A DNA stretch of 28,094 bases from an archaeon (lineage in GTDB: Archaea > Nanobdellota > Nanobdellia > Woesearchaeales > UBA11576): positions 1-28,094 of the forward strand of contig JAGVOD010000108.1 in assembly GCA_020052935.1 (NCBI GenBank), read 5' to 3'. Made by a program: the position numbers and the translations under genes. Positions 1 through 26,948 of the stretch are shown here, piece after piece (position 1 is the first letter of the stretch; each line of letters starts with the position of its first letter). The notes beneath the pieces are model-generated. The model saw only the letters and a list, made by a program, of their open reading frames with translations. It ran no database searches and was not told the DNA's origin.

Positions 1-336
1 ACGACGATAGTGTATTACGTCGTCACAATCCTTGAGACGATAGCTGACGCATATAGAGACATATTCAAGAAAGCGCTAAAGAACGAAAAGAAGGCGCTCG
101 ACCCGAAGATAATCGAGCTCTACAAGACAGTCGACTCGCTGCTGTACAACTTCTACATCATGTTCTACGACTTCAAGCTTGACAAGCTGCTCGAGTTCGA
201 CAAGAAGTTCAAGGAGCTGCTCGCGAAAGAAGACATCATGTTCAAGACAGGAAAGTCGAGCGAGGAGGCATACATAGTGCACCAGCTGTACAGCATCGCG
301 AACAAGCTGCACCACCTGACAGAAACAGTATACTGA
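1..336 (+). CDS. C-terminal fragment of a helical hypothetical protein (5' end lies outside the window)
   Basis: The frame is already open at position 1 (acg acg ata GTG ...), so the Met at 10 in the ORF track is only an in-frame GTG. Stop TGA is at 334-336. The product is K/E/L/F/Y-rich and looks all-helical. No family motif recognised. Confidence 0.45.
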   Translation, partial: TTIVYYVVTILETIADAYRDIFKKALKNEKKALDPKIIELYKTVDSLLYNFYIMFYDFKLDKLLEFDKKFKELLAKEDIMFKTGKSSEEAYIVHQLYSIANKLHHLTETVY

Positions 337-3300
337 TCAGCGGTTGATGACCACAAGAGGGCCCTTCAATCCCGGCAGCATACCATAAAGCGAATCCAGG
401 CTTATCGGCACCCTGTCCACATCGTTATGGATATCGCTTGTACGACAGAATAAGACCCTCCTTTCTGCCTTCTCTGCAGCATTCCTCCTCTGGTAATACT
501 CAATGGCGTGCGACAGTATAGGGAGCGAGGCCTGGCAAGCACCATCGCCTACAAAAGAGAGCTCCTTGGCATTAAGCTCGAAAGGAAGCTCATCGTCATA
601 CATCACCCTGAAGAAAGGCTCAAGCTGTGCTGCAGAAGGATACGATATCCTCTCAGGACGGCCATCCTCCTGATTGAACTTGTTTATGTCATACGCGCAC
701 TTCCACTGATGCACATACAAGAGGAAAGCTGAAGGATTGCACTTTGACTTGAGCCCAGCAAGCACCTTCGCCGAGCTCTCCAATGCCCTAGCGTAATCTT
801 CTGCGCTCTTGATAGAGTAGCCCTGCTTGGACCTGAAAGTCCTGTAATGCAATCCGACGTGCAACGCATCCACAGAAGAGAGTATCTCATCAGCAGAAGA
901 CAACTCGACAGGGGATATGCCCTTCTTCCTGAATACCTCTTCCTGCGCACGCTCGTCCAACGCGGCAATGTCCAGCGCAAGCGCTTCCGGCAGGCCTACA
1001 AGGTCAAGCTCGAGGCCGAAAGAAAGCCTGGCGAAGTCTTTCCTGTGGCGCGCAAACACGTCCTCTATCATCTCCCTGTAACGCAGGAATGGCACGCCGT
1101 ATTCTATGAAACGCGTATGCTCGACTATGCAGACATGCTCAAGCCTCCCCTTTAACGTGTCAAGTTTTCCTTCAATCCTAGACCTTACCAATGCGAGGGA
1201 CTCGTCCACCGGCGTGGCGGGAGAAGGCGTGTCGTTGTAGTGCTTTGCGACACAGTGCGACAGCGAGCCATGCACATGTATGTCTGAAGAAAGACCATAC
1301 ACGCCAAGATGCCTGACAAGCGAAGCGAACGCCTGCCTGAGCTCACTTGCAGAGGCTTTTTCTTCAGCCCCAAGAACCGGCGAGCCAATCACATCATCTA
1401 AGCCCGAGACCACATTATCAAGACAGTCCAAGGCATGACGCTTCGCATCCCTCGCTGCTTCGGCATCACCCTGATCAGAGTACTTCCTCGACCAGTGGCT
1501 GAAGCTGCCGAAATGCCTCAACGCCTTCGAGAACCTGGCGACAGGGAAATCCCTGAGCCAAGAAGGCGCATCAGAATCTATGACTGCCTGGAGAGAGGCG
1601 TCTGCCACACCATAAAGACGCTGGAGGAAATCGCAGAAGAGCAAGTTCTTGCTGGAGACGACAGAACCGTCTTGGTAAAGGGTATTCTTACCGACCACGA
1701 CGTCCTCATCAAGCAGGACATCCTCTTCTTTTATGAATGCACCCATCTCAGTGAACCTGGCGAAGAACCTCGGCATGTCCAAGTCATTTATCCTGTCAAG
1801 GTCAACAAGGCGCTGGTCGCCTTCAGAGACATAGACCAGGTTCCTAGGAGTGAAGTCGAACGCAACGCCCGGCTTCTGGCTGTTCGCTATCTTCAGCAAA
1901 TGAGGAGCGTTCTTCCGCAGGCACGTCTCTAAATCAGACATCAAGCGATCATCGTCAGTGAAAACGTAGAGGCCTGCGGTGAGAGGCTCATCAGAGCCCT
2001 TTATGCCGACGCACTTGCGGAGGGTCTCGGAGAGGTCGGCGGCAGACGCCCTCGCACAATCACCGTCATAAGAACCCTCAACAAAATCTGCGTCTCCTCT
2101 CCGCTCCCAAAGGACATCATAATAGCGGGCAGCCACATCCAAAGCAGCCTTTATCACGCTTCCAGTCATCCTGCCCTCCTCATGCATCTCGAGCAACGCG
2201 GGCGCACGGACTCCAAGCCTGCCCCCCTTGTGGATCTCCTCAGTGACGACATAACCGCTATGGTCTGTATCATCCTCGAAAACAACCTTTATGTCTAACG
2301 CGCCGAGATTCCTCAGCAGATCCGAGTTATTCTTTGCCCTTCTCGCAGAGGCTATATCGGGGTACCTCTTGAAATAGAACCTGTTGACAAGGCCATCAAG
2401 ATGGTCAAGCCTCTCTCCCGGCGCAACAACCTTGATGTTCGCGCCAAGGACATCAAGCAGGAGCTGCCCTTCTGTCCTGAAGAACGCAAGACTGTAGCCC
2501 ATCAGACCCCTGCGATCGACCGTGTGCCTCAGATAATTACTGAACTCCTCAGCAGCGTCAGAATACCTCCTCATGTAAAGCAGGTTGGCAGCGTTGGTGA
2601 TAAGCCTGTCAGATAGCTTGGTGCGTAGCTCGAGCTCGACACGGTGGTAGTCTGCCTTTAGTAGTTCAATCTCATCTACTTGCGCAACAGTACCTTCATC
2701 TGCCTTCGCCAGCTTACCACGCATCTTGAGATTATTCGAGTATAGCTTCGCAATCAAAGGTGGAGACAGTGATAGAATAGAAGCCAGGACTTTAATAGGC
2801 ACAGCACCGTCCATATTCCATATAGAATAAAGGAGCGGAGGAACAACCGCCGCTGCCAAGATTGGTGAAACAAGAATCCTTCTCCAACCCGTAGCTTCTG
2901 GTACCCAAGAGTAAACGATTTCAAAATAGTCTTCCACACCCCCTTTAGAGAGCCGACTCTCAATCTCCCCGAATACTCTTCTGTCCAGAGATCTTGGGAC
3001 TCGTGTTATTACATCTCTAGGTACCTCTCTGACCATACTTGCAGTTTCAATCGGCTGGTGTGTATCTAGACCGTATACCTTGCTTGATACTGCAGCCATA
3101 GTCGCCGCACTTACATCCCTAGAATTCTCAACAAACCTAAGATAATACGGCCCCATGCGTTTCCTGTATTCAGGTCTCAGACCAATACGTATGACTGCGT
3201 GGTCCCGACCCACATCAACAGCCGAGTAATTAAACGCCTTGGTGAAACGTCCTGCATAGAAAGCCATCTTCTCATAAGTCGTCTCGACATCCCACAGCTT

Positions 3301-4074
3301 CCCAAGAGTAAATATGGCCGGACTTATATTCGACGCGCCCGCGAGTGAGAGCACATCCTCCCTTCCGCTGACTATCTTAGCCGCCTCATACATCAACTGC
3401 GACAGCTTATAACTAACCCAGTTCTCTTTTGTAGAAATAAAACTCTTATCTATTCTGTACTCCTGAGGCAGATATGCGTTAACAATTGCAAAGAACCTTC
3501 TTGAAGAATCCTCCACATCTCCTTCTCGTGATTTGACAATTTCCTCGAGTGTAGTGAATACAGCATTCACACTCTTTACGCTATTCTCCCGTATAGGAGC
3601 GCCTTCACGCTCCCCCCAAGGAACATCTTCAAATCCACCCAGACGCCAAATCAAGTCAGGTCCTGCTTCCCAGAGAGGATGCTCAATACTTAGGTTCTCT
3701 CCATTTTCAGGAACAACACAGAAAGCCGCATCAGACAGTATCTCTTTCATCAATAGGTGGGCTACAAAATAGAACTCGTGGCTACAATCAACCCCCCTTC
3801 TAAGAATATCTGAAGTGATACGCAAGGACTCATCACGGCCTTGAAAGAACACCCCTAGTTTTTTCTGGAGGGCATCCACCAAAACATCGAGCGTCCCACC
3901 CCTGTGCTCAAACAAACGAACAACTTCGGCAGTAGTTGCTGCAGACATATCCTTAACATAAGACCCATCTTTCCTCCTCCCAAAAGGTTGATGGATAAAA
4001 TCCCAATCACGCGCCAAAAGGAAAAAATCGTCCATGCCACCAAGTTTTAGCCGAGCATATATAAAATTTTCCAC
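337..4074 (-). CDS. Large orphan protein (1245 aa) of unknown function, with a central pair of hydrophobic segments followed by a coiled-coil-like stretch
   Basis: Uninterrupted 3.7-kb ORF. The start is GTG (reverse complement of cac at 4072-4074), and an in-frame ATG occurs 13 codons downstream. Hydrophobic segments RRILVSPILAAAVVPPLLYSIW and VPIKVLASILSLSPPLIAKLY are followed by the charged heptad-like stretch KADEGTVAQVDEIELLKADYHRVELELRTKL. I could not find a Walker A, HExxH or other named catalytic motif. All other ORFs in this interval are shorter shadows of this frame. Confidence 0.75.
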   Translation of the reverse strand: MENFIYARLKLGGMDDFFLLARDWDFIHQPFGRRKDGSYVKDMSAATTAEVVRLFEHRGGTLDVLVDALQKKLGVFFQGRDESLRITSDILRRGVDCSHEFYFVAHLLMKEILSDAAFCVVPENGENLSIEHPLWEAGPDLIWRLGGFEDVPWGEREGAPIRENSVKSVNAVFTTLEEIVKSREGDVEDSSRRFFAIVNAYLPQEYRIDKSFISTKENWVSYKLSQLMYEAAKIVSGREDVLSLAGASNISPAIFTLGKLWDVETTYEKMAFYAGRFTKAFNYSAVDVGRDHAVIRIGLRPEYRKRMGPYYLRFVENSRDVSAATMAAVSSKVYGLDTHQPIETASMVREVPRDVITRVPRSLDRRVFGEIESRLSKGGVEDYFEIVYSWVPEATGWRRILVSPILAAAVVPPLLYSIWNMDGAVPIKVLASILSLSPPLIAKLYSNNLKMRGKLAKADEGTVAQVDEIELLKADYHRVELELRTKLSDRLITNAANLLYMRRYSDAAEEFSNYLRHTVDRRGLMGYSLAFFRTEGQLLLDVLGANIKVVAPGERLDHLDGLVNRFYFKRYPDIASARRAKNNSDLLRNLGALDIKVVFEDDTDHSGYVVTEEIHKGGRLGVRAPALLEMHEEGRMTGSVIKAALDVAARYYDVLWERRGDADFVEGSYDGDCARASAADLSETLRKCVGIKGSDEPLTAGLYVFTDDDRLMSDLETCLRKNAPHLLKIANSQKPGVAFDFTPRNLVYVSEGDQRLVDLDRINDLDMPRFFARFTEMGAFIKEEDVLLDEDVVVGKNTLYQDGSVVSSKNLLFCDFLQRLYGVADASLQAVIDSDAPSWLRDFPVARFSKALRHFGSFSHWSRKYSDQGDAEAARDAKRHALDCLDNVVSGLDDVIGSPVLGAEEKASASELRQAFASLVRHLGVYGLSSDIHVHGSLSHCVAKHYNDTPSPATPVDESLALVRSRIEGKLDTLKGRLEHVCIVEHTRFIEYGVPFLRYREMIEDVFARHRKDFARLSFGLELDLVGLPEALALDIAALDERAQEEVFRKKGISPVELSSADEILSSVDALHVGLHYRTFRSKQGYSIKSAEDYARALESSAKVLAGLKSKCNPSAFLLYVHQWKCAYDINKFNQEDGRPERISYPSAAQLEPFFRVMYDDELPFELNAKELSFVGDGACQASLPILSHAIEYYQRRNAAEKAERRVLFCRTSDIHNDVDRVPISLDSLYGMLPGLKGPLVVINR

Positions 4075-4086
4075 TATGGAGGAGTC

Positions 4087-4099
4087 ATAAACTAATTTA
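4087..4099 (+). promoter_or_regulatory. Putative BRE/TATA-type promoter box (ATAAACTAATTTA) for the hydrolase gene
   Basis: The 13-mer ataaactaattta is followed by aaaac. Its TATA-like part lies about 27 nt upstream of ATG 4125. The identical 13-mer recurs at 4960-4972 upstream of the fabZ-like gene. Confidence 0.45.
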
Positions 4100-4124
4100 A
4101 AACGATATCTGCCTTTTTGTACTG

Positions 4125-4958
4125 ATGGTACACGAAGAAGAGCTTAAGATACCCTTACAAAACGCGGTAATAACCGGTGACTTATATACCCCTGATGAAC
4201 GCGGGAACCTGAATGGCATCGCGATAGTCAAGACAGGCCTGACTCTAAACAGGTTTGGCTTTGCCGAAAGAGTAGCTAAGATGCTGGCAGAAAGAGGGAT
4301 TCCCACCTTTGCGTATGACCGCAGGGCACATAATGACTCGACAGGCGAGTTCTCATTCAAATCCATCGAGGAGGACTTGCGGGGGATACTCGACTACTTC
4401 GAGAGAGACAGAGGAACAAGAAGATTCGGACTATTAGGCTTCAGTTTTGGAGGCATAACCGCAACAATTGCAGCAAGCAAGGACAAACGCATCAGATCCT
4501 TATGCCTGATAAACGCGTATCCAAACTTCTTCCGGATGGAACTAGAACGTACTCGGACAAAAAGACGTCTACGCTACATGACATACAGGATAATCTCCTT
4601 GCTAGACCGTATTGGCTTGCTTAAGTATATCCGAATAAGATTCAGCGATATACGCGTCCAGAGACTGGAAAAAGGAAGAGGTATGCGATGGAACTTCGGT
4701 CCAACATTCCACGAACTCATTAATGGACCCGACGCAACAGACTACATAAAAAAGCTAGACGTGCCCGTCCTTTTCGTCAGGTCAAATAGAGATAGAACCA
4801 CAAATCCGAAGAATACAGACCTTCTTTTTGAATCCTGCGGGTCAAAACAAAAAAAGTTGGTGGGGATAGATGAAGAGAGCCACTTTTTCGAGAATGATAT
4901 GACTCCCATGATTACGGCCTGCGCCAAGGATCTGGGGAAGCACTTACTACACAAATAA
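4125..4958 (+). CDS. Alpha/beta-fold serine hydrolase (possible thioesterase/esterase)
   Basis: Nucleophile elbow G-x-S-x-G is present as LLGFSFGG. Candidate acid and His residues lie late in the chain (SNRDRTT, DEESHFF), in the usual Ser-Asp-His order. The length of 277 aa is typical for the fold. Confidence 0.7.
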   Translation: MVHEEELKIPLQNAVITGDLYTPDERGNLNGIAIVKTGLTLNRFGFAERVAKMLAERGIPTFAYDRRAHNDSTGEFSFKSIEEDLRGILDYFERDRGTRRFGLLGFSFGGITATIAASKDKRIRSLCLINAYPNFFRMELERTRTKRRLRYMTYRIISLLDRIGLLKYIRIRFSDIRVQRLEKGRGMRWNFGPTFHELINGPDATDYIKKLDVPVLFVRSNRDRTTNPKNTDLLFESCGSKQKKLVGIDEESHFFENDMTPMITACAKDLGKHLLHK

Positions 4959-4959
4959 G

Positions 4960-4972
4960 TATAAACTAATTT
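4960..4972 (+). promoter_or_regulatory. Putative BRE/TATA-type promoter box (ATAAACTAATTTA), second copy
   Basis: Same 13-mer as at 4087-4099, here followed by tatg. It lies about 30 nt upstream of the GTG start at 5003. Confidence 0.4.
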
Positions 4973-5002
4973 ATATGTTTTGTAAAAAAGAGAGAGAAGA
5001 GA

Positions 5003-5512
5003 GTGAAGATAAAAGAGGTCTTGAAAATTCCCAGAAAAACACTCAGCGAGAAGTGTCTGCGAGAGATTCTTCCATACGGAAAAGGCTTTCTCTTTGTGGA
5101 CAGAATAAACAAGCTGTGCAAGAGAAGCGTAGAGAGCCAGAAGCATTTCCGCAAAGAAGAGCCCTACTTCCGTGAACACTTCAAGGACATACCCCTAACA
5201 CCCGGAGTATTCATAATCGAATCTGCCGCACAAACCTGCTCTGTCCTTGTCAGAAACAACATCAAAAACCAAGAGAATTATCATATACTTCTTTTCAAGA
5301 TAAAAGAAGCAACCTTCAAAAGACCGGTCTTTCCGGACACAGATATCAAGACGGCTGCCAAGATTAAAACGGTAAAAAACGGCGTTTTCACACTATCATC
5401 CGTAGTCAAATCAAAAAACGAAGAAGTGGCACGAATGACTTTCATAGTCGTTGCTGTCAAAAAAGAGGATTTCAAAAAAAGATGGGGACTCAAGACTTCT
5501 CAGCAGGAATAG
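5003..5512 (+). CDS. fabZ: FabZ/FabA-like hotdog-fold 3-hydroxyacyl thioester dehydratase
   Basis: ILPYGKGFLFVDRI matches the FabZ N-terminal ILPHRYPFLLVDR pattern. FREHFKDIPLTPGVFIIESAAQ matches the H-F-x-x-x-P-x-x-PGV-x-x-IE-x-x-AQ catalytic His/Glu block. The start is GTG. Confidence 0.8.
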   Translation: MKIKEVLKIPRKTLSEKCLREILPYGKGFLFVDRINKLCKRSVESQKHFRKEEPYFREHFKDIPLTPGVFIIESAAQTCSVLVRNNIKNQENYHILLFKIKEATFKRPVFPDTDIKTAAKIKTVKNGVFTLSSVVKSKNEEVARMTFIVVAVKKEDFKKRWGLKTSQQE

Positions 5513-6492
5513 CATCGACAGGCATGTACGTACCGCCAAAGATAGTCACTAATAAAGACATGGAGAGTATGGTCGAAACCAGCGATGCTTGGATAACTGA
5601 AAAGACAGGAATAAAAGCCCGGAGATTTGTCGAAGGTGACAAAGCCCTATCAGACATATGCATCCCTGCAGCCAGACAAGCGATAAGGATGGCAGGGATA
5701 CTAGGCAAGGATGTAGATACTATCATAGTCGGGGCGATGAGCCACGACTATCAGGGGATTCCCACTGCAAACATCCTAAAGAAAGCTCTGGGCGCCAAAG
5801 ATGCGTACACCCTGGACATCAACGTAATATGCTCAGGGTTTGTCCAGAGCCTTGACTTAGCCTGTAAACTAGTGAGAGAAGGCTCTCACAAGAATGTACT
5901 GGTCTTGAACGGCGAAGTGTTCTCCCGATACAAACACAGCAGGTTGACATCAGTCATATTCGGAGACGGCGCAGGGGCATTTATTGTCAGGAGGATGAAG
6001 AAAGGAAAAGGCCTACTATCAACATACCTAAAATCCGACGTGACGAACGCTACCAAGCTAGCGATGCTGGGCGGAGGATCAAGGTACCCCGCAACCACCC
6101 AGAACATAAACAAAGGGCTCTTCACCATACAAATGGATGGAAAGGCAATCTTCGATTTCGCGACAAAGGCATTTCCAGAAGCGATAATAGGCGCTGCGAA
6201 GAAGGCTGGAGTCGACGTTTCAGATATAGACATGGTCATATCGCACCAGGCAAACATAAGAATAATAAAAGAAGGCATGAAGCAAATAGGGCTCCCTATG
6301 TCAAAGACATATACCAACATACACAAATATGGTAACATCGGCGGCGGTTCAATTACTGTTGCACTACACGAAGCTTTAAAAAAAGGACTGATAAGACGCA
6401 ATGATCTTGTTGCCACAGTTGCTTTTGGTGCAGGCCTGTCATGGGGAGCAAATATCATGAGATGGTGCGACAAGAGGGATGTGATAAAATGA
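5482..6492 (+). CDS. fabH: KAS III-type (FabH-like) beta-ketoacyl synthase; substrate carrier (ACP or CoA) undetermined
   Basis: The N-terminus IASTGMYVPPKIVTNKDMESMVETSDAWITEKTGIKARR is FabH-like. The Cys-His-Asn triad sits in canonical contexts: DINVICSGF, VISHQANIRI and KYGNIGGGSI. The gene overlaps the fabZ-like gene by 31 nt. Confidence 0.85.
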   Translation: MGTQDFSAGIASTGMYVPPKIVTNKDMESMVETSDAWITEKTGIKARRFVEGDKALSDICIPAARQAIRMAGILGKDVDTIIVGAMSHDYQGIPTANILKKALGAKDAYTLDINVICSGFVQSLDLACKLVREGSHKNVLVLNGEVFSRYKHSRLTSVIFGDGAGAFIVRRMKKGKGLLSTYLKSDVTNATKLAMLGGGSRYPATTQNINKGLFTIQMDGKAIFDFATKAFPEAIIGAAKKAGVDVSDIDMVISHQANIRIIKEGMKQIGLPMSKTYTNIHKYGNIGGGSITVALHEALKKGLIRRNDLVATVAFGAGLSWGANIMRWCDKRDVIK

Positions 6493-7229
6493 AGCTTGTC
6501 ACGTCCGAAAACAGAAAAGACCATTTTCACATCACTCTCAACAGACCTGAAAAGCTCAATTCGCTCAACAAAGAAGTCATAGCAGACCTGCGGGACGCAT
6601 TGAAATCAGTGCCTGATGAGACAATGGTGGTCGTCCTATCCGCTGCGGGCAAATCTTTTTGCACAGGCGCGGACGTAAACAACTTCAAGATATACCCTCC
6701 GAGGGAACTGAGGTCGATCCTCAAGATGGTCTCTGGAGTATTCAACGAAATAGAGAAATCAGAAAAAATATTCATCGCAGCGATACGAGGATACTGCCTC
6801 GGAGGAGGGCTTGAACTGGCGCTCGCCTGTGACTTCATACTTGCGGGCAGAGACGCTAGATTCGGCTTTCCCGAGATAAAACTCGGGCTGATACCTGGTG
6901 TCGACGGGATAAAAAGGCTCACAAAACAGATAGGAAGAAGAAACTCGCTGCCTTTGCTTCTCACCGGAGACACAATTTCTGCAAGACAGGCAAAAGAGCT
7001 AGGACTAGTGAATGCTGTTGTAAGCAACTACAGACTGATGAGAGAAGCGGAGGCGCTTGCACAGAAAATCTCCTCGATGAATCCCGTCGCGATAAGGTCC
7101 ATAAAAAAACTCAGTTACGATGCCTCAGTCAAAGACATAAGCGAGGAAGAATTCAAAGCCGCCGAGAAGTGTCACTCTACTGAGTATGCCCAATCCAAGA
7201 TAAATGCATTCCTCAACAGGAAGCGCTGA
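6489..7229 (+). CDS. Crotonase-family enoyl-CoA hydratase/isomerase
   Basis: ITLNRPEKLNSLN, GGGLELALACDF and FPEIKLGLIPG are present, so both catalytic Glu positions are conserved. I place the start at ATG 6489, which forms an ATGA overlap with the fabH-like stop. The ORF-track Met at 6441 lies inside the fabH-like gene. Confidence 0.85.
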   Translation: MKLVTSENRKDHFHITLNRPEKLNSLNKEVIADLRDALKSVPDETMVVVLSAAGKSFCTGADVNNFKIYPPRELRSILKMVSGVFNEIEKSEKIFIAAIRGYCLGGGLELALACDFILAGRDARFGFPEIKLGLIPGVDGIKRLTKQIGRRNSLPLLLTGDTISARQAKELGLVNAVVSNYRLMREAEALAQKISSMNPVAIRSIKKLSYDASVKDISEEEFKAAEKCHSTEYAQSKINAFLNRKR

Positions 7230-7319
7230 TTATACTGATGACAAACACAGCAAGTTGAAGTAGGCATAATTTACAATTTAAATGATGATTATCTCCTGAT
7301 GGGAGAAAAGAGGTGAATC

Positions 7320-8060
7320 ATGAGGCTCCAGGGCAAGACTGCCATAATCACAGGATCTTCACGCGGGATAGGCCGGGCCATCGCCATCGAGTTCGCACGC
7401 GAAGGCTGCAACATACTCATAAACTACTCGAGCAACTACGAAGCTGCGAGACAGACAGAAGAGGAGCTCAAGAAATTTGGAGTAAGGACATACCTCTGCA
7501 AGGCAGACGTGTCAAAGTACGACGAAGCGAAAAGCATGGTCGAGCAGGCGATAGTATTCTTCGGCAAAGTAGACATACTGGTGAACAACGCGGGCATAAC
7601 GAACCCGGCACTTCTCGCCAAGATGAGCGTGGAGCAATGGCACAGCGTGCTGGATGTCGACCTCAACGGGACGTTCAACTGCACGCACGCATCGCTGAAC
7701 CACATGATATCCAACAACCAGGGGAGGATAATCAACATCTCATCCCTGTACGGCCAGACAGGCGCGTTCGGCCAGTGCAACTACGCAGCAGCAAAGTGGG
7801 GAGTGATAGGCTTCACGAAATCCCTCGCCCTGGAAGCGGCGAGAAACAACATCCTCGTCAATGCCATAGCACCGGGCGCAGTCGAGACAGACCTCATAAA
7901 ATCAGTCAGGGAAGATTTCCTCCAGAGATACATCGAGGCCAATCCCCTCAAGAGGCTGGCAAAACCAGAAGAGGTAGCCAAGGCAGCATTGTTCCTGGCG
8001 ACTGACGCGACGTACACCACAGGAGAGGTCATCTCAGTCAACGGAGGGCAACATGTTTAA
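7320..8060 (+). CDS. fabG: FabG-like short-chain dehydrogenase/reductase (3-oxoacyl thioester reductase)
   Basis: Motifs present: TGSSRGIGRAIA (cofactor-binding Gly motif), NNAGI, the catalytic Tyr and Lys in YAAAKWG, and IAPGAVETD. A Shine-Dalgarno-like GAGGTGA at 7310-7316 precedes the ATG. Confidence 0.85.
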   Translation: MRLQGKTAIITGSSRGIGRAIAIEFAREGCNILINYSSNYEAARQTEEELKKFGVRTYLCKADVSKYDEAKSMVEQAIVFFGKVDILVNNAGITNPALLAKMSVEQWHSVLDVDLNGTFNCTHASLNHMISNNQGRIINISSLYGQTGAFGQCNYAAAKWGVIGFTKSLALEAARNNILVNAIAPGAVETDLIKSVREDFLQRYIEANPLKRLAKPEEVAKAALFLATDATYTTGEVISVNGGQHV

Positions 8061-9570
8061 GATAGAACGCAAAGCGCTCCGGGAGAAGATAGCAGAATTC
8101 CTAAAGAAAGAGAGGGAACTCAAGACCATAGACAAGAGCAAGCAGCAGCCCAAGAAGCTCACAGCAAGAGAGAGGCTCGGACTTCTTCTAGACAAAGGCA
8201 CATTCACAGAGATAGACCTGTTCGCCAAGCCAAGGGATGCAGAGCTGCAACAGCTGAAGTGCGACGGAGTCGTAGCAGGATACGGCAAGATCGACGGAAG
8301 GCAGGTATGCGTCTATGCACAGGACTTCACGCAGAAAGGAGGCACACTGGGAGAGATGCATGCCAAGAAGATAGTGAAGGTCATGGACCTCGCGATAAAG
8401 ACCGGCTGCCCCATCATAGGGATAGATGACTCTGGCGGAGCAAGGATACAGGAAGGGGTCAAGGCGCTGGACGGCTACGCAAGGATATTCTACAAGAACA
8501 CAAATGCCTCGGGAGTGGTGCCGCAGATATCTATAATCCTAGGGCCATGCGCAGGAGGCGCAGTCTACTCGCCGGCGCTGACAGACTTCATATTCATGGT
8601 CAAGGGCCTAAGCAAGATGTTCATAACAGGGCCTGCAGTGATAAAGAGCACGATGTCTGAAGAGATAACACCTGAAATGCTGGGCGGGGCAGAAGTGCAC
8701 GCAGAGATGAGCGGGGTGGCGCACTTCGAAGATGAGTCAGAGCACGCAGCCATACTGAAGGTGAGAAGGCTGCTCAGCTACCTCCCATCAAACAACCTCT
8801 CAGACCCGCCGAAGTCGCAGGCCAGGGACAACCCAAACAGGCGGAATAAACGCCTGATCAAGTTGGTGCCCTCAGACCCGAAGAAGAGCTACGACGTGCG
8901 CGACGTCCTAAGAGAGGTGCTCGACAGGAACTCATTCATGGAAGTGCACGCAGGATTCGCAAAGAACATAATAGTAGGATTCGCAAGGCTGAACAGCACA
9001 ACAATAGGGGTCGTGGCGAACCAGCCCTGCGTACTGGCAGGCTGCCTAGACATAAACGCGTCAGACAAAGCAGCAAGATTCGTCAGGTTCTGCGACGCAT
9101 TCAACATACCGATAATCAACTTCGTCGACGTGCCAGGATACCTCCCTGGAAAAGAGCAGGAATACGGCGGGATAATAAGGCACGGCGCAGAGCTCCTCTA
9201 CGCATACGCAGAGGCGACAGTGCCGAAGATATCACTCATCATGCGCAAGGCATACGGCGGGGCGTACATCGTCCTCTGCTCGAGAGAGATGCGCTACGAC
9301 CAGGTCATAGCCTGGCCCACAGCAAGGATAGCAGTCATGGGCGCACGGCAGGCAGCAGAGATAATATTCAAGGACGCACCAGACAAAGAGGAAAAGACAC
9401 AGGAATATGAGGAGAAGTTCCTCAACCCCTATGTCGCAGCAGAACTCGGCAGCGTCGACATGATAATAAACCCTGCAGAGACAAGGGCGACGCTGATAAA
9501 ATCCCTGGAAGCGCTGCTGACAAAACGAGAGAGAAGATTGCCTAAGAAGCACGGCAACATACCGCTGTAG
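8053..9570 (+). CDS. pccB: Acyl-CoA carboxylase carboxyltransferase subunit (PccB / AccD-type; acetyl versus propionyl specificity undetermined)
   Basis: Motifs present: ARERLGLLLDKGTFTEID, GVVAGYGKIDGRQVCVYAQDFT..GGTLGE, DSGGARIQEG and GPCAGGAVYSPALTDF. The ATG overlaps the end of fabG by 8 nt, and GGAGGG at 8043-8048 precedes it. Confidence 0.85.
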   Translation: MFKIERKALREKIAEFLKKERELKTIDKSKQQPKKLTARERLGLLLDKGTFTEIDLFAKPRDAELQQLKCDGVVAGYGKIDGRQVCVYAQDFTQKGGTLGEMHAKKIVKVMDLAIKTGCPIIGIDDSGGARIQEGVKALDGYARIFYKNTNASGVVPQISIILGPCAGGAVYSPALTDFIFMVKGLSKMFITGPAVIKSTMSEEITPEMLGGAEVHAEMSGVAHFEDESEHAAILKVRRLLSYLPSNNLSDPPKSQARDNPNRRNKRLIKLVPSDPKKSYDVRDVLREVLDRNSFMEVHAGFAKNIIVGFARLNSTTIGVVANQPCVLAGCLDINASDKAARFVRFCDAFNIPIINFVDVPGYLPGKEQEYGGIIRHGAELLYAYAEATVPKISLIMRKAYGGAYIVLCSREMRYDQVIAWPTARIAVMGARQAAEIIFKDAPDKEEKTQEYEEKFLNPYVAAELGSVDMIINPAETRATLIKSLEALLTKRERRLPKKHGNIPL

Positions 9571-9575
9571 ATCAT

Positions 9576-9653
9576 AAAAATCCGCCGAAAGTGCCCTACT
9601 CCGCCCTAAAGGGCGGAGTTTGACTGGGCACTTTCTTTCGCTGGCGGATTTTT
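9576..9653. repeat. A5-stem-T5 nested hairpin A (possible bidirectional terminator directly after pccB)
   Basis: aaaaatccgcc-gaaagtgccc at 9576-9596 pairs with gggcactttc...ggcggattttt at 9626-9653. The inner hairpin is ctccgccc-taaa-gggcggag (9599-9618). The element ends in T5. Confidence 0.55.
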
Positions 9654-9660
9654 AGGATGC

Positions 9661-9721
9661 CAAAAATTTCGCCCTGAAGGACGGGGTTTCAAACCCGGCA
9701 CAAAATTTTGCGAAATTTTTG
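9661..9721. repeat. A5-stem-T5 hairpin B, same architecture as hairpin A with a different stem sequence
   Basis: caaaaatttcgc (9661-9672) pairs with gcgaaatttttg (9710-9721). The inner palindrome is gggtttcaaaccc (9684-9696). Confidence 0.55.
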
Positions 9722-9745
9722 TGCATGATATTGATAGACGGAATT

Positions 9746-9874
9746 GGCAGTGCCGCGCCAGGCTACGCTCGTCGTTGTTTTTCATGAAAGCAGGTCACCC
9801 CCGTAAGGGACATCCCCCCGACCTGCGTAAATAATGATGCGAAAATCGCTCCGCAAATTGGCGGCGGCACCGCC
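9746..9874 (+). repeat. Structured intergenic element, copy 1 (lacks the outermost stem)
   Basis: ggcagtgccgcgcc (9746-9759) pairs with ggcggcggcaccgcc (9860-9874). The central stem is caggtc (9791-9796) with gacctg (9820-9825), enclosing a C/G core (cccccgtaaggga cat cccccc). The blocks aggctacgctc and atgatgcgaaaatcgctccgcaaa are shared with copy 3. Confidence 0.65.
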
Positions 9875-9894
9875 TGATAACAGGATGATACTAA

Positions 9895-10347
9895 ATGAGG
9901 CTCAAGATAGACGGAAAAGAATTCTGCGTAAGCATACTGCCTGACAAGAAAGGCTACAAGGTAAGGGTAGGGAACAGGCAGATAGAGACATCGCACAGCA
10001 GCCCGCAATTCAGGGTGGGCAGGCAAAAGCACACAGCAGAAGTGAAGAAGAAGGCAGACAACACATTCAACGTAAGCATTGACCAGGACAACTACTCCGT
10101 CGAGATCCTGGACAAGGAGAAAGAGTCGTCACGGTCGATAAAAGCGCCGATGCAAGGCACAGTCATCGAGATAGACGTGAAAGAAGGCCAGGCAGTCCAG
10201 AAAGGCCAGACCATCATCAAGCTCATATCGATGAAGATGGAGAACGAGATAAAGGCAGAACGGGACTGCAGGATAAGAGAGATAAAAGTAAGGAACCGCC
10301 AGACAGTCGCGAAAGGGGAGGTGCTGATTGAGCTCGAAAAACCCTGA
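9895..10347 (+). CDS. accB: Biotin carboxyl carrier protein (biotinyl domain protein)
   Basis: The C-terminal domain is APMQGTVIEIDVKEGQAVQKGQTIIKLISMKMENEI...GEVLIELE, with the biotinyl-lysine in the MKM motif. Confidence 0.8.
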   Translation: MRLKIDGKEFCVSILPDKKGYKVRVGNRQIETSHSSPQFRVGRQKHTAEVKKKADNTFNVSIDQDNYSVEILDKEKESSRSIKAPMQGTVIEIDVKEGQAVQKGQTIIKLISMKMENEIKAERDCRIREIKVRNRQTVAKGEVLIELEKP

Positions 10348-11883
10348 AGGAAGCGTCGCGACAAGAAGATCCAGGAAGGTACTCATCGCAAACAGGGGAG
10401 AGATAGTCCTCAGGATAATAAGGGCCTGCAAAGCGCTCGGCATAAAGACAGTCGCGATATACGCCCCCGACGACAAGAACAGGCTCATAGAGAAGTCGGC
10501 AGACGAGTACGTCCGTATAGACGGAGAGAGCCTCGAATCCACATACCTAAACATAGGCAAGATAATCAAGATAGCCAAGCAAAAAAGGCAGATGCAATCC
10601 ACCCAGGATACGGCTTCCTGGCCGAGAACCCCCTCTTCGCCAGGGCGTGTGAGCAGAACAACATCACATTCATAGGACCGAGCTCGTCAGCGCTCGAAAG
10701 CACAGCAGACAAGATAGGCGCGAGAGGGATCGCACGCGGACTCGGCATGCAGATAATACCCGGCAGCGACGTGCTCAAGAGGAAAGAGGATGCGCTGCGC
10801 TTCGCAGAGAAGCAAGGCTACCCCATAATACTCAAGTCCTGCTATGGAGGAGGAGGGAAAGGCATAAGGACTGCACGCAACAAGAAAGAGCTGCTCGGCT
10901 GCTTCGACGCAGCGGCAAAAGAGGTCGAGACAAGCTTCGGCACACCCCTCATCTACGCAGAGAAATACATCAAGGCAAGACATATCGAGTTCCAGTTCAT
11001 CGCAGACAAGCATGGCAACTACGCCTGCCTCGGCGACAGGGAATGCTCTATCCAGAGACGCTTCCAGAAACTCATAGAGGAAACGCCTTCACCAGCGCTC
11101 ACCAGTAAAGAAAGGAAGAGGATATGCCATGATGTATGCGAGTTGGTAAAGAGCATAGACTATGCTGGCGTCGGCACAGCAGAATTCCTTCTCACACCAG
11201 ACAAGAAGATATACTTCCTGGAAGTCAACCCAAGGATACAGGTAGAGCACGGCATAACCGAGCTGATAACGGGGATAGACATAGCAAAAGAACAGCTGAG
11301 GATAGCGCAGGGACTGCCACTCTCATTCAACCAGGGACAAGTCAGGATAAAGGGTCACGCAATAGAGTGCCGGATCGTCGCAGAGTGCGCAAGAAGAGAC
11401 TTCGCGCCGGCAGGCGGAATCATCTCCAGACTCGAGCTCGGCCAGCCTGACAAAAACAAGCCCGACTACGTCAGGGTGGATGCTGCGCTGTATCCAGGCC
11501 TGAGGATAAACCCTTCATACGACTCGCTCCTGGCAAAGCTTATGGTGCACGGCAGGTCAAGGAAAGAAGCAGTCAAGAAACTTAGGCAGGCTCTTGCAGC
11601 CGCAAGGATAGAAGGCGTGCAGAACACCATAGACTTCTACAAGTTCCTCACCCGGCAGAAGAGATTCATCGACGGCAAGCTCAGCACAGAGTTCATCTCG
11701 GAAAACAGGCTGGTAGAGAAGTACAGCAAGGAAAGCCTCCTGCCAGAGATAGTTGCGTTGATCGCCTCAGCGATATACGAGCACGAAGCAAACCACTTGC
11801 TAAGCTTCCCAACACCAGACCGTTGGGTCGAGAGCTCCAGGAAAGAAGCTGTCGAAGCCGAGCCTGAAGAAAGATGGGGCTAG
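10328..11883 (+). pseudogene. accC: Biotin carboxylase (AccC-type) split into two frames by a 1-nt frameshift in an A6 run
   Basis: Frame 1 (10328-10675) gives KVLIANRGEIVLRIIRA...YLNIGKIIKIAKQK and then nonsense. The other frame reads (K)ADAIHPGYGFLAENPLFARACEQNNITFIGPS from 10588 and continues through GGGGKGIR, IEETPSP and EVNPRIQVEHGITE to the stop at 11883. One extra A in aaaaaa (10581-10586) would restore ...IAKQKKADAIHPGYGF.... The apparent start is TTG at 10328, overlapping the end of accB. Confidence 0.8.
10581..10587 (+). other. Frameshift site: AAAAAAG homopolymer at the accC frame junction
   Basis: Zero-frame codons are CAA AAA AGG. The homologous continuation is in the -1 frame (AAA AAG GCA GAT GCA ATC CAC CCA). 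Confidence 0.8.
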
Positions 11884-11885
11884 CA

Positions 11886-12608
11886 TCAGACGCCTTGCAC
11901 AAGGTCGCCCTCAACAACAATGATTTCACGGCCCTTGGCCCTCACTATCAACGAGCCATCTCCTGATATCCCTGCGGCAACACCCGAAACGACGCCACGC
12001 ACAGTAGTGACCCGCACCTTCTTGCCACCAGAATCCCAAAGCAGCTTCCAGTCACGCAGTATACTGCTGTAACTATCCTTTGTATAAGCATCACAGTATC
12101 TTGCGTAATACCTCAGCACATCTTTCAACAAGGATTCCTTATCTATCTCTATCCCTTTCTCTGACTTCAAGGTGGTGGCTGATGCCAAGCCGACATGATT
12201 ATTGACGTTTATGCCGATGCCGACCACGGTCGCCACACTCTTCCCAGCTACGACATTCTCAGTCAGTATGCCGCAGACCTTCCTGCCATGTATAAGGATA
12301 TCATTCGGCCACTTTATGACTGCTGGCAGGCCTTGCTCCCGGATGGCTTTCGCGACTGAAACCGCTGCAGCAAAAGTGAGCAGGAAAGTCTTTTCAGGCT
12401 TTTTGTGCTTCAGCAATACCGAGAACCACAAACCGCCACGGCCTGAGTGCCACTTCCTGTTGAACCTGCCACGCCCCTTTGTCTGGGTGTCGGCCACGAC
12501 AACCGTGCCGTGAGGCAGCTTCCTGTAGCTCCGCATAATGAACTCATTCGTAGATGCCAGAACGGCATACCGGATGGGATTGTGGAAGTTCATCATGGTG
12601 ACCTGCAA
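11886..12608 (-). CDS. birA: Biotin--protein ligase, class I (no N-terminal HTH domain)
   Basis: GRGRFNRKWHSGRGGLWFSVLL matches the GRGRxGRxWxSPxGxxL motif, and KWPNDIL is present. The ORF-track start is TTG at 12608; an ATG at 12596 (MMNFH...) is the more likely start. The stop lies 2 nt from the accC stop (convergent genes). Confidence 0.85.
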   Translation of the reverse strand: MQVTMMNFHNPIRYAVLASTNEFIMRSYRKLPHGTVVVADTQTKGRGRFNRKWHSGRGGLWFSVLLKHKKPEKTFLLTFAAAVSVAKAIREQGLPAVIKWPNDILIHGRKVCGILTENVVAGKSVATVVGIGINVNNHVGLASATTLKSEKGIEIDKESLLKDVLRYYARYCDAYTKDSYSSILRDWKLLWDSGGKKVRVTTVRGVVSGVAAGISGDGSLIVRAKGREIIVVEGDLVQGV

Positions 12609-12615
12609 TCATAAC

Positions 12616-12781
12616 GACTCTGTCCCAAGTCTCACTCCGTTCGGGCAGCGCCAGATTCGGCCAAGCGCCCATATCAGCGTGAACGCTGTAGCCCCGTAGG
12701 GGGCATCCCCCACTACGCGCCAGATAGTTTAGCGAAGTGGCCTCATAAAGGGCGCTGCCTTCACTTGGGACAGAGCCAGTC
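12616..12781 (+). repeat. Structured intergenic element, copy 2 (166 nt)
   Basis: Three nested stems. The outer 13-bp perfect stem is ctctgtcccaagt (12618-12630) with acttgggacagag (12763-12775). The second stem is ggcagcgcc (12644-12652) with ggcgctgcc (12751-12759). The central stem is cgc-t-gtag (12684-12691) with ctacgcg (12713-12719), enclosing ccccgtagggggcatccccc. Confidence 0.7.
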
Positions 12782-13934: not shown

Positions 13935-14411
13935 GTGCTAAAGAGGCCTCTAATATTGAGTAAGGAAGAGACAGCTGCAGCCAGCAGCACAGCGACAGCA
14001 GAGAATCCGTTCAAGCCAGACATAGTCATACCAACAACGATATTCTGCGACCGCTCACTCAGTTTTCTAGAAGCGCTTGTCGAGTACCTCAAGAGACAGC
14101 TCAACCTCTCATACCACGAGATCGCGATGCTGACCAACCGCGATGAGAGGAACATCTGGACACTGTACCACAGGGCTGAGAAGAAAAGGACAGAGCACGA
14201 GCCAGACACAAAGAAAGCGCCAGTGATGAACATACCACTAGCGGTCGTTACAGACCGTTCTGTATCGATACTTGAAGTCGTGGTAGAACACCTGCGCGAC
14301 AATACAAAACTCGCGAATCACCAGATAGCCACACTTCTGAACAGGTCAGACAAGACCATATCGACAGTATACATCCGAACAAAGAAGAAACGAACACAAA
14401 ATGCTGCGTGA
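13935..14411 (+). CDS. Small DNA-binding protein with two tandem sigma70-region-4/LuxR-like HTH repeats
   Basis: Internal duplication. Repeat 1 is DIVIPTTIFCDRSLSFLEALVEYLKRQLNLSYHEIAMLTNRDERNIWTLYHRAEKKRTE (nt 14019-14195). Repeat 2 is VMNIPLAVVTDRSVSILEVVVEHLRDNTKLANHQIATLLNRSDKTISTVYIRTKKKRTQ (nt 14223-14399). The LS-x-x-E...eIA-x-L-x-R-x-x-x-T(I/V)...(R/K)KK pattern fits region-4/GerE-type HTH. The start is GTG, and the stop TGA at 14409-14411 overlaps the ATG of the giant gene. Confidence 0.6.
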   Translation: MLKRPLILSKEETAAASSTATAENPFKPDIVIPTTIFCDRSLSFLEALVEYLKRQLNLSYHEIAMLTNRDERNIWTLYHRAEKKRTEHEPDTKKAPVMNIPLAVVTDRSVSILEVVVEHLRDNTKLANHQIATLLNRSDKTISTVYIRTKKKRTQNAA

Positions 14412-26734: not shown

Positions 26735-26900
26735 GGCGTTGTTGAAAAGTTCGCTCTCCGAGCGGGTGCCGTCAGGCTACGCTCTCCGTGTTTCTCAACC
26801 ATATCGCGACATCCCCGTAGGGGGCAACCCCCTGTCGCGAGCGAAGATGATGCGAGAAATCGCTCCGCAAAAGGACGGCACCACCCTTTTCAACAACGCC
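26735..26900 (+). repeat. Structured intergenic element, copy 3 (166 nt, best-preserved)
   Basis: Three nested stems. The outer 15-bp perfect inverted repeat is ggcgttgttgaaaag (26735-26749) with cttttcaacaacgcc (26886-26900). The second stem is ggtgccgtc (26765-26773) with gacggcacc (26874-26882). The central stem is cgcgaca (26805-26811) with tgtcgcg (26833-26839), enclosing tccccgtagggggcaaccccc. Confidence 0.7.
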
Positions 26901-26948
26901 AAATGCACGAAAACATTTTTATACTATCACTCACTGGAGGTGTAGATA

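Follow-up and report, generated by a model that had tools for sequence, protein, structure and literature searches.

A candidate CoA-based, malonyl-CoA-driven condensation operon without local acyl carrier protein genes in Woesearchaeal archaea

Introduction

Archaeal fatty-acid synthesis without an acyl carrier protein (ACP) is an open question with consequences for the 'lipid divide' and for how eukaryotic membranes arose; synthesis of this kind is said to have been proposed by Lombard in 2012 and by Dibrova in 2014. One ACP-independent archaeal pathway of fatty-acid synthesis (FAS), that of Sulfolobus acidocaldarius, has been reconstituted with a thiolase/DUF35 condensing complex; its authors consider the use of malonyl-CoA unlikely, no decarboxylating condensing enzyme having been identified, and disproved it for the Saci_1114 ketothiolase (bioRxiv 10.1101/2024.07.05.601840). 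Here we analyze a 28,094-nt contig of a Woesearchaeal archaeon from the DPANN group (JAGVOD010000108.1 of GenBank assembly GCA_020052935.1; this whole stretch is referred to as the window), in which the genes of a ketoacyl synthase III (KAS III), a FabG-type reductase and two dehydratases form one operon with those of a biotin-dependent acyl-CoA carboxylase, beside the biotin ligase gene birA, and with which the question becomes testable. From the sequence we put at about 0.5 the probability that the operon would carry out a condensation on CoA esters, driven by malonyl-CoA, with subsequent beta-carbon processing; the substrates of its enzymes are most likely CoA thioesters, not acyl groups on ACP.

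The operon has in common with the Sulfolobus pathway its archaeal host, the proposed carrier-free chemistry on CoA esters and the pairing of a short-chain dehydrogenase/reductase (SDR) with a hotdog-type dehydratase. It differs in that its condensing enzyme is a decarboxylating KAS III, gene-linked to the carboxylase; thiolase, DUF35 and medium-chain dehydrogenase/reductase genes were found neither in the window nor at the loci of the clade, by which we mean 13 KAS III clusters at 90% identity that form a tight group at 49–63% identity.

Bacterial type II FAS resembles the operon in its homologous KAS III, FabG and FabZ enzymes, whose catalytic residues are intact here, and in the linked biotin carboxylase set; some Firmicutes fab-acc clusters carry a crotonase-family enzyme, FabM. 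The operon departs from the bacterial system in having no ACP, FabD, FabF/B or enoyl reductase gene in cis, in a carboxyltransferase (CT) of the single-chain PccB type instead of AccA/AccD, in FabH and FabG docking arginines that are not conserved within the clade, and in its DPANN host. The engineered malonyl-CoA-dependent CoA pathways, built from acetyl-CoA carboxylase, NphT7, PhaB, PhaJ and Ter, share the logic proposed for the operon: the condensation is rendered irreversible by a carboxylation at the cost of ATP, its CoA substrates are handled by an enzyme of the KAS III fold, and an R-specific SDR and a hotdog dehydratase come next. The operon is natural, not engineered; its KAS III is closest to canonical FabH, with no NphT7 model of NCBIfam among its matches, and it has no Ter/ECR-type reductase. 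The eukaryotic microsomal elongase (KCS or ELO, KCR, HCD and ECR) likewise condenses acyl-CoA with malonyl-CoA and carries out reduction and dehydration on CoA esters with no ACP, but its enzymes, which include an enoyl-CoA reductase, are membrane-bound and non-homologous or distant, and they elongate pre-made long chains.

Closer to the host, homologues of FabG, FabZ and FabI whose next-best matches are bacterial have been reported in Woesearchaeota-type genomes among DPANN bins; the portion of that study considered here lists 'ACP pathway' genes only, and contains no KAS III, carboxylase/BirA linkage, lack of ACP or docking changes (Zhang et al., 2024, mBio, PMC10936187). The FabHs of Marine Group II and Bathyarchaeota, nearest to the clade from outside it (43–47% identity), have with it in common the frequent change of R249 (Escherichia coli FabH numbering) to Asn; they stand alone, and carry GNTAGAS instead of GNIGGGS. 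We found no description in the literature of the operon, of its carboxylase/BirA link or of the docking-residue changes, and a paper on Woesearchaeota metabolism does not mention fatty acids or carboxylases outside its reference list.

Results

A nine-gene cluster conserved in a Woesearchaeal sub-lineage

Listing and translation of open reading frames (ORFs) place eight plus-strand genes at 4125–11883 and a convergent birA at 11886–12608, which is the nine-gene order read from the sequence in an initial annotation. Searches with profile hidden Markov models of Pfam and NCBIfam, for which that annotation had asked, upheld all of its family assignments. The overlaps it gave are also correct: 31 nt between fabZ and fabH, an ATGA junction between fabH and the crotonase gene (start at 6489), 8 nt between fabG and pccB, and 20 nt between accB and accC, counted from a TTG start. 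All of the described catalytic motifs are in place, namely KAS III Cys/His/Asn, FabZ His/Glu, both crotonase Glu residues, FabG Ser/Tyr/Lys, the MKM of biotin carboxyl carrier protein (BCCP) and the GRGR of BirA. Two parts of the description have to be amended: biotin carboxylase (BC) is not encoded by a single ORF, and a 324-nt insert between pccB and accB had been overlooked. The features of the cluster are:

4125–4958, plus strand: alpha/beta hydrolase, 277 aa; Hydrolase_4 (6.9e-14) and Abhydrolase_1; GFSFG nucleophile elbow; accessory
5003–5512, plus strand: FabZ-type hotdog (3R)-hydroxyacyl dehydratase, 169 aa, GTG start; Pfam FabA (5.8e-15); accessory
5482–6492, plus strand: KAS III of the FabH family, 336 aa; ACP_syn_III and ACP_syn_III_C; NF006829 at 320.1 bits; core
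6489–7229, plus strand: crotonase-fold enoyl-CoA hydratase/dehydratase, 246 aa from the ATGA start; ECH_1 (9.2e-51); core
7320–8060, plus strand: FabG-type NAD(P)H 3-ketoacyl reductase, 246 aa; adh_short (8e-62); core
8053–9570, plus strand: PccB/YCC-type CT, 505 aa; Carboxyl_trans (2.4e-183); core
9571–9894, plus strand: non-coding structured insert, 324 nt, between pccB and accB
9895–10347, plus strand: BCCP, 150 aa, SMKME biotinylation motif; Biotin_lipoyl (3.3e-16); core
10328–11883, plus strand: BC (ATP-grasp), frameshifted; Biotin_carb_N, CPSase_L_D2 and Biotin_carb_C
10581–10586, plus strand: A6 homopolymer, site of the accC frameshift; frame change between the two accC ORFs
11886–12608, minus strand: BirA biotin-protein ligase, 240 aa, no repressor domain; BPL_LplA_LipB; TIGR00121 at 187.8 bits (cut-off 83); GRGR; core

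The core of this cluster, KAS III-crotonase-FabG-CT-BCCP-BC followed by BirA on the minus strand, recurs in the same orientation in five independent relatives (L002/3, L084, L085/86, L087–89 and L101). The KAS III enzymes of these five are 49–63% identical, so a chance arrangement can be dismissed. FabG is the most conserved gene product (68–84% identity across relatives), and BirA occupies the same position in L002, L084, L086 and L087. The hydrolase and FabZ, which the initial annotation had treated as parts of the module, proved to be accessory, each being missing from some relatives: both are present in the window and, fused as one 402-aa ORF, in L087–89, L084 and L101 have a hydrolase and no hotdog, and L002 and L085/86 have a hotdog and no hydrolase. 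The fusion ORF joins an alpha/beta hydrolase to a FabZ/ApeI-like hotdog (8730–9938 of L087; likewise in L088 and L089), which suggests that the two accessory proteins work together.

A KAS III identical to that of the window (P0121) is encoded on a 28,663-bp JGI/NCBI contig, and contig L001 matches positions 1–6667 of the window at 99.985%. A metagenome scan with the clade motif KYGNIGGGS returned 10 loci, one of them a true relative (L101). The next KAS III relatives are from Bathyarchaeota (47% identity) and Marine Group II (about 43–45%), followed by bacterial FabHs (36–43%). The Marine Group II and Bathyarchaeota homologues are solitary, with no FabG, crotonase or carboxylase neighbors, and the full operon therefore appears specific to one Woesearchaeal sub-lineage; one of the solitary Bathyarchaeota homologues adjoins a CoA-transferase.

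The window itself carries no universal marker and no tRNA. The nearest named CT is from a 'Nanoarchaeota archaeon'. The gene of the archaeal/eukaryotic ribosomal protein S3Ae lies at a distance of 8 kb from the L084 and L087 clusters and of 27 kb from that of L002, there on a single contig of 149,783 bp; the named homologues of these S3Ae proteins are all from Candidatus Woesearchaeota or Nanoarchaeota, which supports the archaeal, DPANN-like origin suspected in the initial annotation. The cluster was not found within 10 kb of S3Ae in L102 and L103, an absence that is uninformative by itself because the corresponding distance in L002 is larger.

Carrier genes at the loci and docking residues of KAS III and FabG

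As a bacterial reference we used 79 fabH loci among the matches listed from a scan of species-representative genomes with motifs of the clade alignment, matches that comprised bacterial FabHs and one Marine Group II genome; the clade loci searched for ACP were the window and six related loci, 118.5 kb in total. With the ACPs of E. coli and Bacillus subtilis as tblastn queries, no credible ACP gene was found at any of these seven loci or at the other archaeal loci, and the same queries found one at 31 of the 79 bacterial loci and at 21 of the 46 of them that span at least 15 kb. E. coli FabD, FabF and FabI had no tblastn match in any archaeal locus examined, in what was a locus-level search; the corresponding bacterial counts were 32, 33 and 6 of 79. 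AcpS, checked through Pfam annotations only, was found neither in the window nor at the archaeal loci. For the window, Pfam scans of all plausible genes and tblastn with the E. coli references agree with the initial annotation that there is no ACP, FabD, FabF or FabI-like sequence.

The catalytic residues of FabH, C112/H244/N274 in E. coli and C117/H255/N285 in the window, are conserved in 79/79 bacterial enzymes and invariant in the 13 clade members, and W32 and R151, which contact CoA, are likewise kept in 79/79 and 13/13. R249, which reportedly docks ACP (work of Zhang and colleagues in 2001), is Arg in every one of the 79 bacterial enzymes and Asn in 10 of the 13 clade members. A basic residue (Lys or Arg) is found at K214 in 78/79 bacterial against 8/13 clade enzymes, and at K257 in 63/79 against 1/13. 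The R249 site is also Asn in 78 of the 107 next-best homologues (P0014–P0120), which are largely of the Marine Group II/Bathyarchaeota types.

A similar pattern is seen in FabG, for which the controls were 30 bacterial FabGs adjoining fabH. The catalytic S138/Y151/K155 are present in 30/30 bacterial and 7/7 clade enzymes. At R129, Arg or Lys is found in 29 of the 30 bacterial enzymes, and Asn, Glu, Ser or Lys in the clade, with no Arg and Lys in one of seven; R172 is Arg in all 30 bacterial enzymes and His, Asn or Tyr in all seven of the clade. Arg129 and Arg172 mediate the docking of ACP to FabG in E. coli (PMC8007833), and in FabH Arg36, Arg151 and Arg249 lie at the mouth of the active-site tunnel (PMC10054515). 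Two enzymes with relaxed ACP-docking residues and retained catalytic residues match what would be predicted for an ACP-free system.

The carboxylase and the frameshift in accC

The best PDB matches of the CT are beta subunits of propionyl-CoA carboxylase (PCC), consistent with a single-chain PccB type. Its Ile407 (KAYGGAYIV) aligns with the Asp of human PCCB 'GGAYDV', which corresponds to chain position 422 of Streptomyces coelicolor PccB, and Ile is found at this site in all five clade CTs (the window and four relatives). According to work of Diacovich in 2004, an Asp at site 422 of PccB is said to exclude acetyl-CoA, while Ile, as in AccB, admits it. The Ile at this site makes malonyl-CoA, and not only methylmalonyl-CoA, a plausible product of the carboxylase, as the initial annotation had proposed.

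A −1 frame change at the A6 run splits accC into ORFs of 10328–10675, which matches Biotin_carb_N, and 10747–11883, which matches CPSase_L_D2 and Biotin_carb_C. Addition of a single A gives an accC of 518 codons that aligns end to end with the intact enzymes of relatives (501–516 aa), and the gene is whole in all four relatives whose contigs include it; read-through in the window would need A7 or a −1 ribosomal slip at CAA-AAA-AGG. There are 22 homopolymers of at least 6 nt in the window, of which only that at 10581–10586 breaks a gene, and the neighboring ORFs of 12.3 kb and 3.7 kb are uninterrupted. Because the other 21 homopolymers and these long ORFs are intact, the shift may be real and not an assembly error. 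A true lesion, a variant within the population and an error of assembly are all conceivable, and the module may be impaired in the window genome if the shift is neither such an error nor bypassed.

KAS III, reductase, dehydratases and hydrolase

The KAS III scores 320.1 bits against NF006829, above the cut-off of 249, and 287.4 bits against TIGR00747, just under the cut-off of 292.1; its nearest solved structures are canonical FabHs (PDB, 218 bits). Its scores against OleA (about 72 bits) and BioZ (about 110 bits; PDB 9j6e) are weaker than against FabH, and no gene for an OleA or BioZ partner (OleC, BioC/CaiB) was found among the window genes with Pfam; an OleABCD- or BioZ-type system was ruled out on these grounds. 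The loop after the catalytic Asn (residues 284–290), an active-site loop, reads GNIGGGS in 13/13 clade enzymes, GNTSAAS or similar in bacterial FabHs and GNTAGAS in Marine Group II. At the gatekeeper of the primer pocket (F87 in E. coli) the alignment is ambiguous around a one-residue indel, and we draw no conclusion on chain length from this site for that reason.

Downstream of the condensation, the FabG homologue scores nearly equally with the FabG and acetoacetyl-CoA reductase models of NCBIfam (280 and 269 bits). The best PDB match of the crotonase is 5zai, a 3-hydroxypropionyl-CoA dehydratase that presumably comes from an archaeon (165 bits; next match 139 bits); its GGGLE and FPEIKLG segments align with 5zai and rat ECH, and both catalytic Glu residues are kept. 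This match led us to consider a 3-hydroxypropionate cycle, which we rejected: malonyl-CoA reductase, 3-hydroxypropionyl-CoA synthetase and acryloyl-CoA reductase are lacking, and a KAS III has no role in that cycle. The FabZ-type hotdog protein reaches 80.5 bits with the NCBIfam FabZ model, under its cut-off of 113; its best PDB matches are all FabZ, and its His (..EHF..) and Glu (..IIESAAQ) are aligned with theirs. No specific NCBIfam family reaches its cut-off with the alpha/beta hydrolase, which is a candidate thioesterase or esterase; it was also considered as a polyhydroxyalkanoate (PHA) synthase and rejected as such, since the nucleophile in GFSFG is Ser and not Cys.

A second Woesearchaeal architecture

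A contig of Candidatus Woesearchaeota (Ga0309836_1000531; locus L105, 10001–21536) encodes a CT that is 61% identical to that of the window in a different setting. Here CT-BCCP is followed by a 4HBT acyl-CoA thioesterase, by BirA and BC on the other strand, and then by a FabZ-like hotdog protein (31% identical to that of the window), a thiolase, DUF362, a ferredoxin, subunits of pyruvate:ferredoxin oxidoreductase and, last, a second thiolase. No ACP was found at this locus; a 76-aa ORF inside the cluster was considered as one and proved to be a hydrophobic membrane peptide. The combination of carboxylase and ligase with a FabZ-like dehydratase, a condensing enzyme and a thioesterase is thus recurrent in Woesearchaeota beside unambiguously CoA-dependent enzymes, and the 4HBT thioesterase offers an analogue for a thioesterase role of the window's hydrolase. 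It is odd to find a carboxylase next to thiolases, which are not known to use malonyl-CoA.

Discussion

A CoA-borne pathway and the points against it

Assigned at every step from family membership, the condensation and beta-carbon processing that we favor would begin with the biotinylation of BCCP by BirA and the conversion of acetyl-CoA to malonyl-CoA by BC and the PccB-type CT, at the expense of ATP. An acyl-CoA primer would be loaded on Cys117 of KAS III and undergo decarboxylative condensation with malonyl-CoA to give a 3-ketoacyl-CoA, which the FabG-type reductase would convert to the (3R)-hydroxyacyl-CoA; the FabZ-type hotdog protein, the crotonase or both would interconvert this with the trans-2-enoyl-CoA, and the alpha/beta hydrolase, where present, would cut the thioester or an ester product. 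The pathway might either stop at C4–C6 hydroxyacyl-/enoyl-CoA or enter an elongation cycle closed by a reductase encoded elsewhere. The self-contained cycle pictured in the initial annotation is not borne out, because no enoyl reductase was found in the operon. A more far-reaching version, in which a single FabH-derived KAS III elongates iteratively with a reductase encoded elsewhere and so provides natural carrier-free, malonyl-CoA-driven fatty-acyl synthesis, is tentative and seems to us rather doubtful.

If the CoA-borne pathway holds, the operon would be a second archaeal route, driven by malonyl-CoA and built from Fab enzymes of bacterial type, the only biochemically supported one, that of Sulfolobus, being one that avoids malonyl-CoA. 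In the more far-reaching version a DPANN archaeon would make its own fatty acids, possibly for membrane lipids, by a third, previously unseen solution beside ACP-dependent FAS and the thiolase/DUF35 system. The host is unexpected, as the lineage is usually assumed to scavenge lipids. The enzyme set (KAS III, FabG, FabZ, crotonase and carboxylase) is small and easy to assay, and could serve as a natural model for the hand-built ACP-free malonyl-CoA pathways of metabolic engineering.

ACP independence, which the initial annotation had put forward, draws its support from docking arginines that are not conserved in KAS III and FabG and from the lack of ACP, FabD and FabF in cis. A number of points weigh against it and against the CoA-borne pathway as a whole. 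The term 'ACP-less' applies to the window and to the flanking DNA of its relatives, the evidence being local. By sequence the KAS III belongs to the FabH family, an outcome that the initial annotation had listed as refuting, and we know of no sequence rule that separates users of malonyl-CoA from users of malonyl-ACP; the carrier does not follow from membership of the FabH family by itself. In the KAS III of the window the R249 site is still Arg, and position 171 of the clade FabGs, one before R172, is basic. The operon has no enoyl reductase by Pfam or by tblastn with FabI, and accC is frameshifted in the window genome. The stereochemistry is puzzling, in that an R-specific reductase and an S-specific crotonase belong to the core and the R-specific hotdog protein is dispensable. 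FabG, FabI and FabZ of DPANN bins are called ACP-pathway genes by other authors (PMC10936187).

Alternative explanations

The operon might instead be a fragment of ACP-dependent type II FAS from bacteria that supplies malonyl-CoA, initiation and the early steps, with ACP, AcpS, FabD, FabF and FabI encoded elsewhere in the genome. A KAS III that passes an NCBIfam FabH cut-off, has canonical FabHs as its nearest structures and keeps the R249-equivalent Arg is what this explanation would expect, as are the FabG, FabI and FabZ reported in DPANN bins (PMC10936187), and about half of the bacterial fabH loci likewise have no ACP within 10 kb. We nevertheless hold it to be unlikely: the FabH and FabG docking arginines are invariant or nearly so in the bacterial controls and not conserved in the clade, ACP, FabD and FabF are found at 0/7 clade loci and at no other archaeal locus, a CoA-specific crotonase is a core gene, and the sister architecture of L105 uses thiolases and a 4HBT acyl-CoA thioesterase. 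Of comparably low probability is a special case of the CoA-borne pathway that would end at C4, the carboxylase and an NphT7-like KAS III forming acetoacetyl-CoA irreversibly, either for hydroxymethylglutaryl-CoA (HMG-CoA) and mevalonate or as 3-hydroxybutyryl-CoA/crotonyl-CoA for storage or fermentation. Neither an enoyl reductase nor an elongating KAS I/II was found at the loci, the FabG homologue scores nearly alike with acetoacetyl-CoA reductase models, and the crotonase has its nearest matches in enzymes of short chains, a 3-hydroxypropionyl-CoA dehydratase and a short-chain enoyl-CoA hydratase, all of which would suit a C4 product. A supply of mevalonate would not, however, need a reductase, a dehydratase or a crotonase, no HMG-CoA synthase or PHA synthase is encoded near the window's cluster or those of its relatives, and the nucleophile of the hydrolase is not the Cys of PHA synthases. 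A serious minority possibility, which concerns the window genome only, is that its operon is a decaying relic: the accC frameshift would be real, no malonyl-CoA would be made and the operon would be heading to loss. The frameshift itself, an assembly that otherwise looks indel-free (the other 21 homopolymers break no gene and the 12.3-kb ORF is intact) and the insertion that splits the operon between pccB and accB speak for decay, whereas all other genes are intact with their catalytic residues in place, accC has no further lesion, relatives hold intact copies, and an isolated indel in a homopolymer may stem from the consensus or the assembly.

Two further explanations take the carboxylase or the accessory genes as their starting point. 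The CT could be part of a (methyl)malonyl-CoA decarboxylase that translocates Na+, or the Fab-like genes and those of the carboxylase could be unrelated and merely juxtaposed; the best NCBIfam match of the CT is indeed the mmdA subfamily model (TIGR01117, 731 bits), and JGI names some of its homologues methylmalonyl-CoA decarboxylase alpha. That score lies under the cut-off of 998.8, the cluster includes an ATP-grasp BC, and no membrane subunit of the OadB/MmdB type (OAD_beta) was found among the window genes with Pfam; these three observations argue for a carboxylase, as originally annotated, and against a sodium pump. Mere juxtaposition is opposed by the 8-nt overlap of fabG with the CT gene, by the order kept in five relatives and by the recurrence of the carboxylase-hotdog link in L105, and we regard this explanation in either form as extremely unlikely. 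A route to pimeloyl, the biotin precursor, or to another specialized metabolite, with a BioH-like esterase and FabH/FabG/FabZ-type enzymes, is very improbable as well. The hydrolase has a weak BioH match (E 8e-6), KAS III enzymes of the BioZ type exist (PDB 9j6e) and BirA is adjacent, but the BioH score of 25.6 bits is far under the cut-off of 207, the KAS III scores 110 bits with BioZ against 218 with FabH, none of bioC, bioF, bioA, bioD and bioB was found in the window or at the relatives' loci, and two relatives have no hydrolase. The adjacency of BirA calls for no biotin product, because the carboxylase accounts for it.

Structured insert, dispersed repeat and flanking genes

The insert between pccB and accB folds at a minimum free energy of −126 kcal/mol (z = −5.7 against shuffled controls). 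It is absent from the relatives, in which pccB and accB are 2–35 nt apart, and no Rfam family matches the window or this spacer. Its 5' half (9571–9730) consists of a triply nested 88-nt hairpin with stems of 16, 10 and 10 bp, present in single copy, followed by a 12-bp hairpin; neither the rest of the window nor 1.5 Mb of the relatives' and other loci yielded a copy of these hairpins. The 3' half (about 9731–9890) belongs to a structured repeat, dispersed and about 130–160 nt long, whose copies, found with nhmmer and a covariance model, are:

Window, plus strand: 9731–9890, 12623–12781 and 26755–26904
L087: 2995–3155 (minus strand), 11698–11846 (plus strand) and 18260–18456 (plus strand)

The copies at 12623–12781 of the window and 11698–11846 of L087 (the same match occurs in L089) came to light only with the covariance model, which had been trained on the remaining four (E about 1e-6). 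The conserved core hairpin of the repeat is CCCCCGTAGGGG, and its long closing stem shows compensatory substitutions between copies at 9/29 and 6/18 predicted pairs. The copies are intergenic and mostly lie directly upstream of a same-strand gene; within the operon the repeat sits at differing junctions, pccB|accB in the window and ECH|fabG in L087.

By eye, AATTTAAA(A/T) boxes are seen about 25–45 nt upstream of the hydrolase and fabG starts (within 4090–4124 and 7270–7319), without statistical support. They are possible archaeal TATA boxes, in which case an internal promoter would be implied; a GAGGTGA motif ahead of fabG, also noted by eye, resembles a Shine-Dalgarno sequence.

Divergent from the operon and 50 nt away lies the gene of a 1245-aa protein (337–4074, minus strand) with no match in Pfam, NCBIfam or PDB. 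Homologues of 980–1234 aa occupy the same position in every cluster-bearing relative, and none was found in L102 or L103. On the other side of the cluster, a 158-aa protein with two weak matches to sigma-70 region-4-like helix-turn-helix (HTH) domains overlaps the start of a 4097-aa LamG/Ig-domain giant (13935–26694), a pairing that is kept in L002, L084, L087 and L103. Where the contigs reach, the recurrent flanks are the 980–1245-aa orphan upstream and, downstream, SpoIIM, the small HTH protein and the giant LamG/Ig-domain protein.

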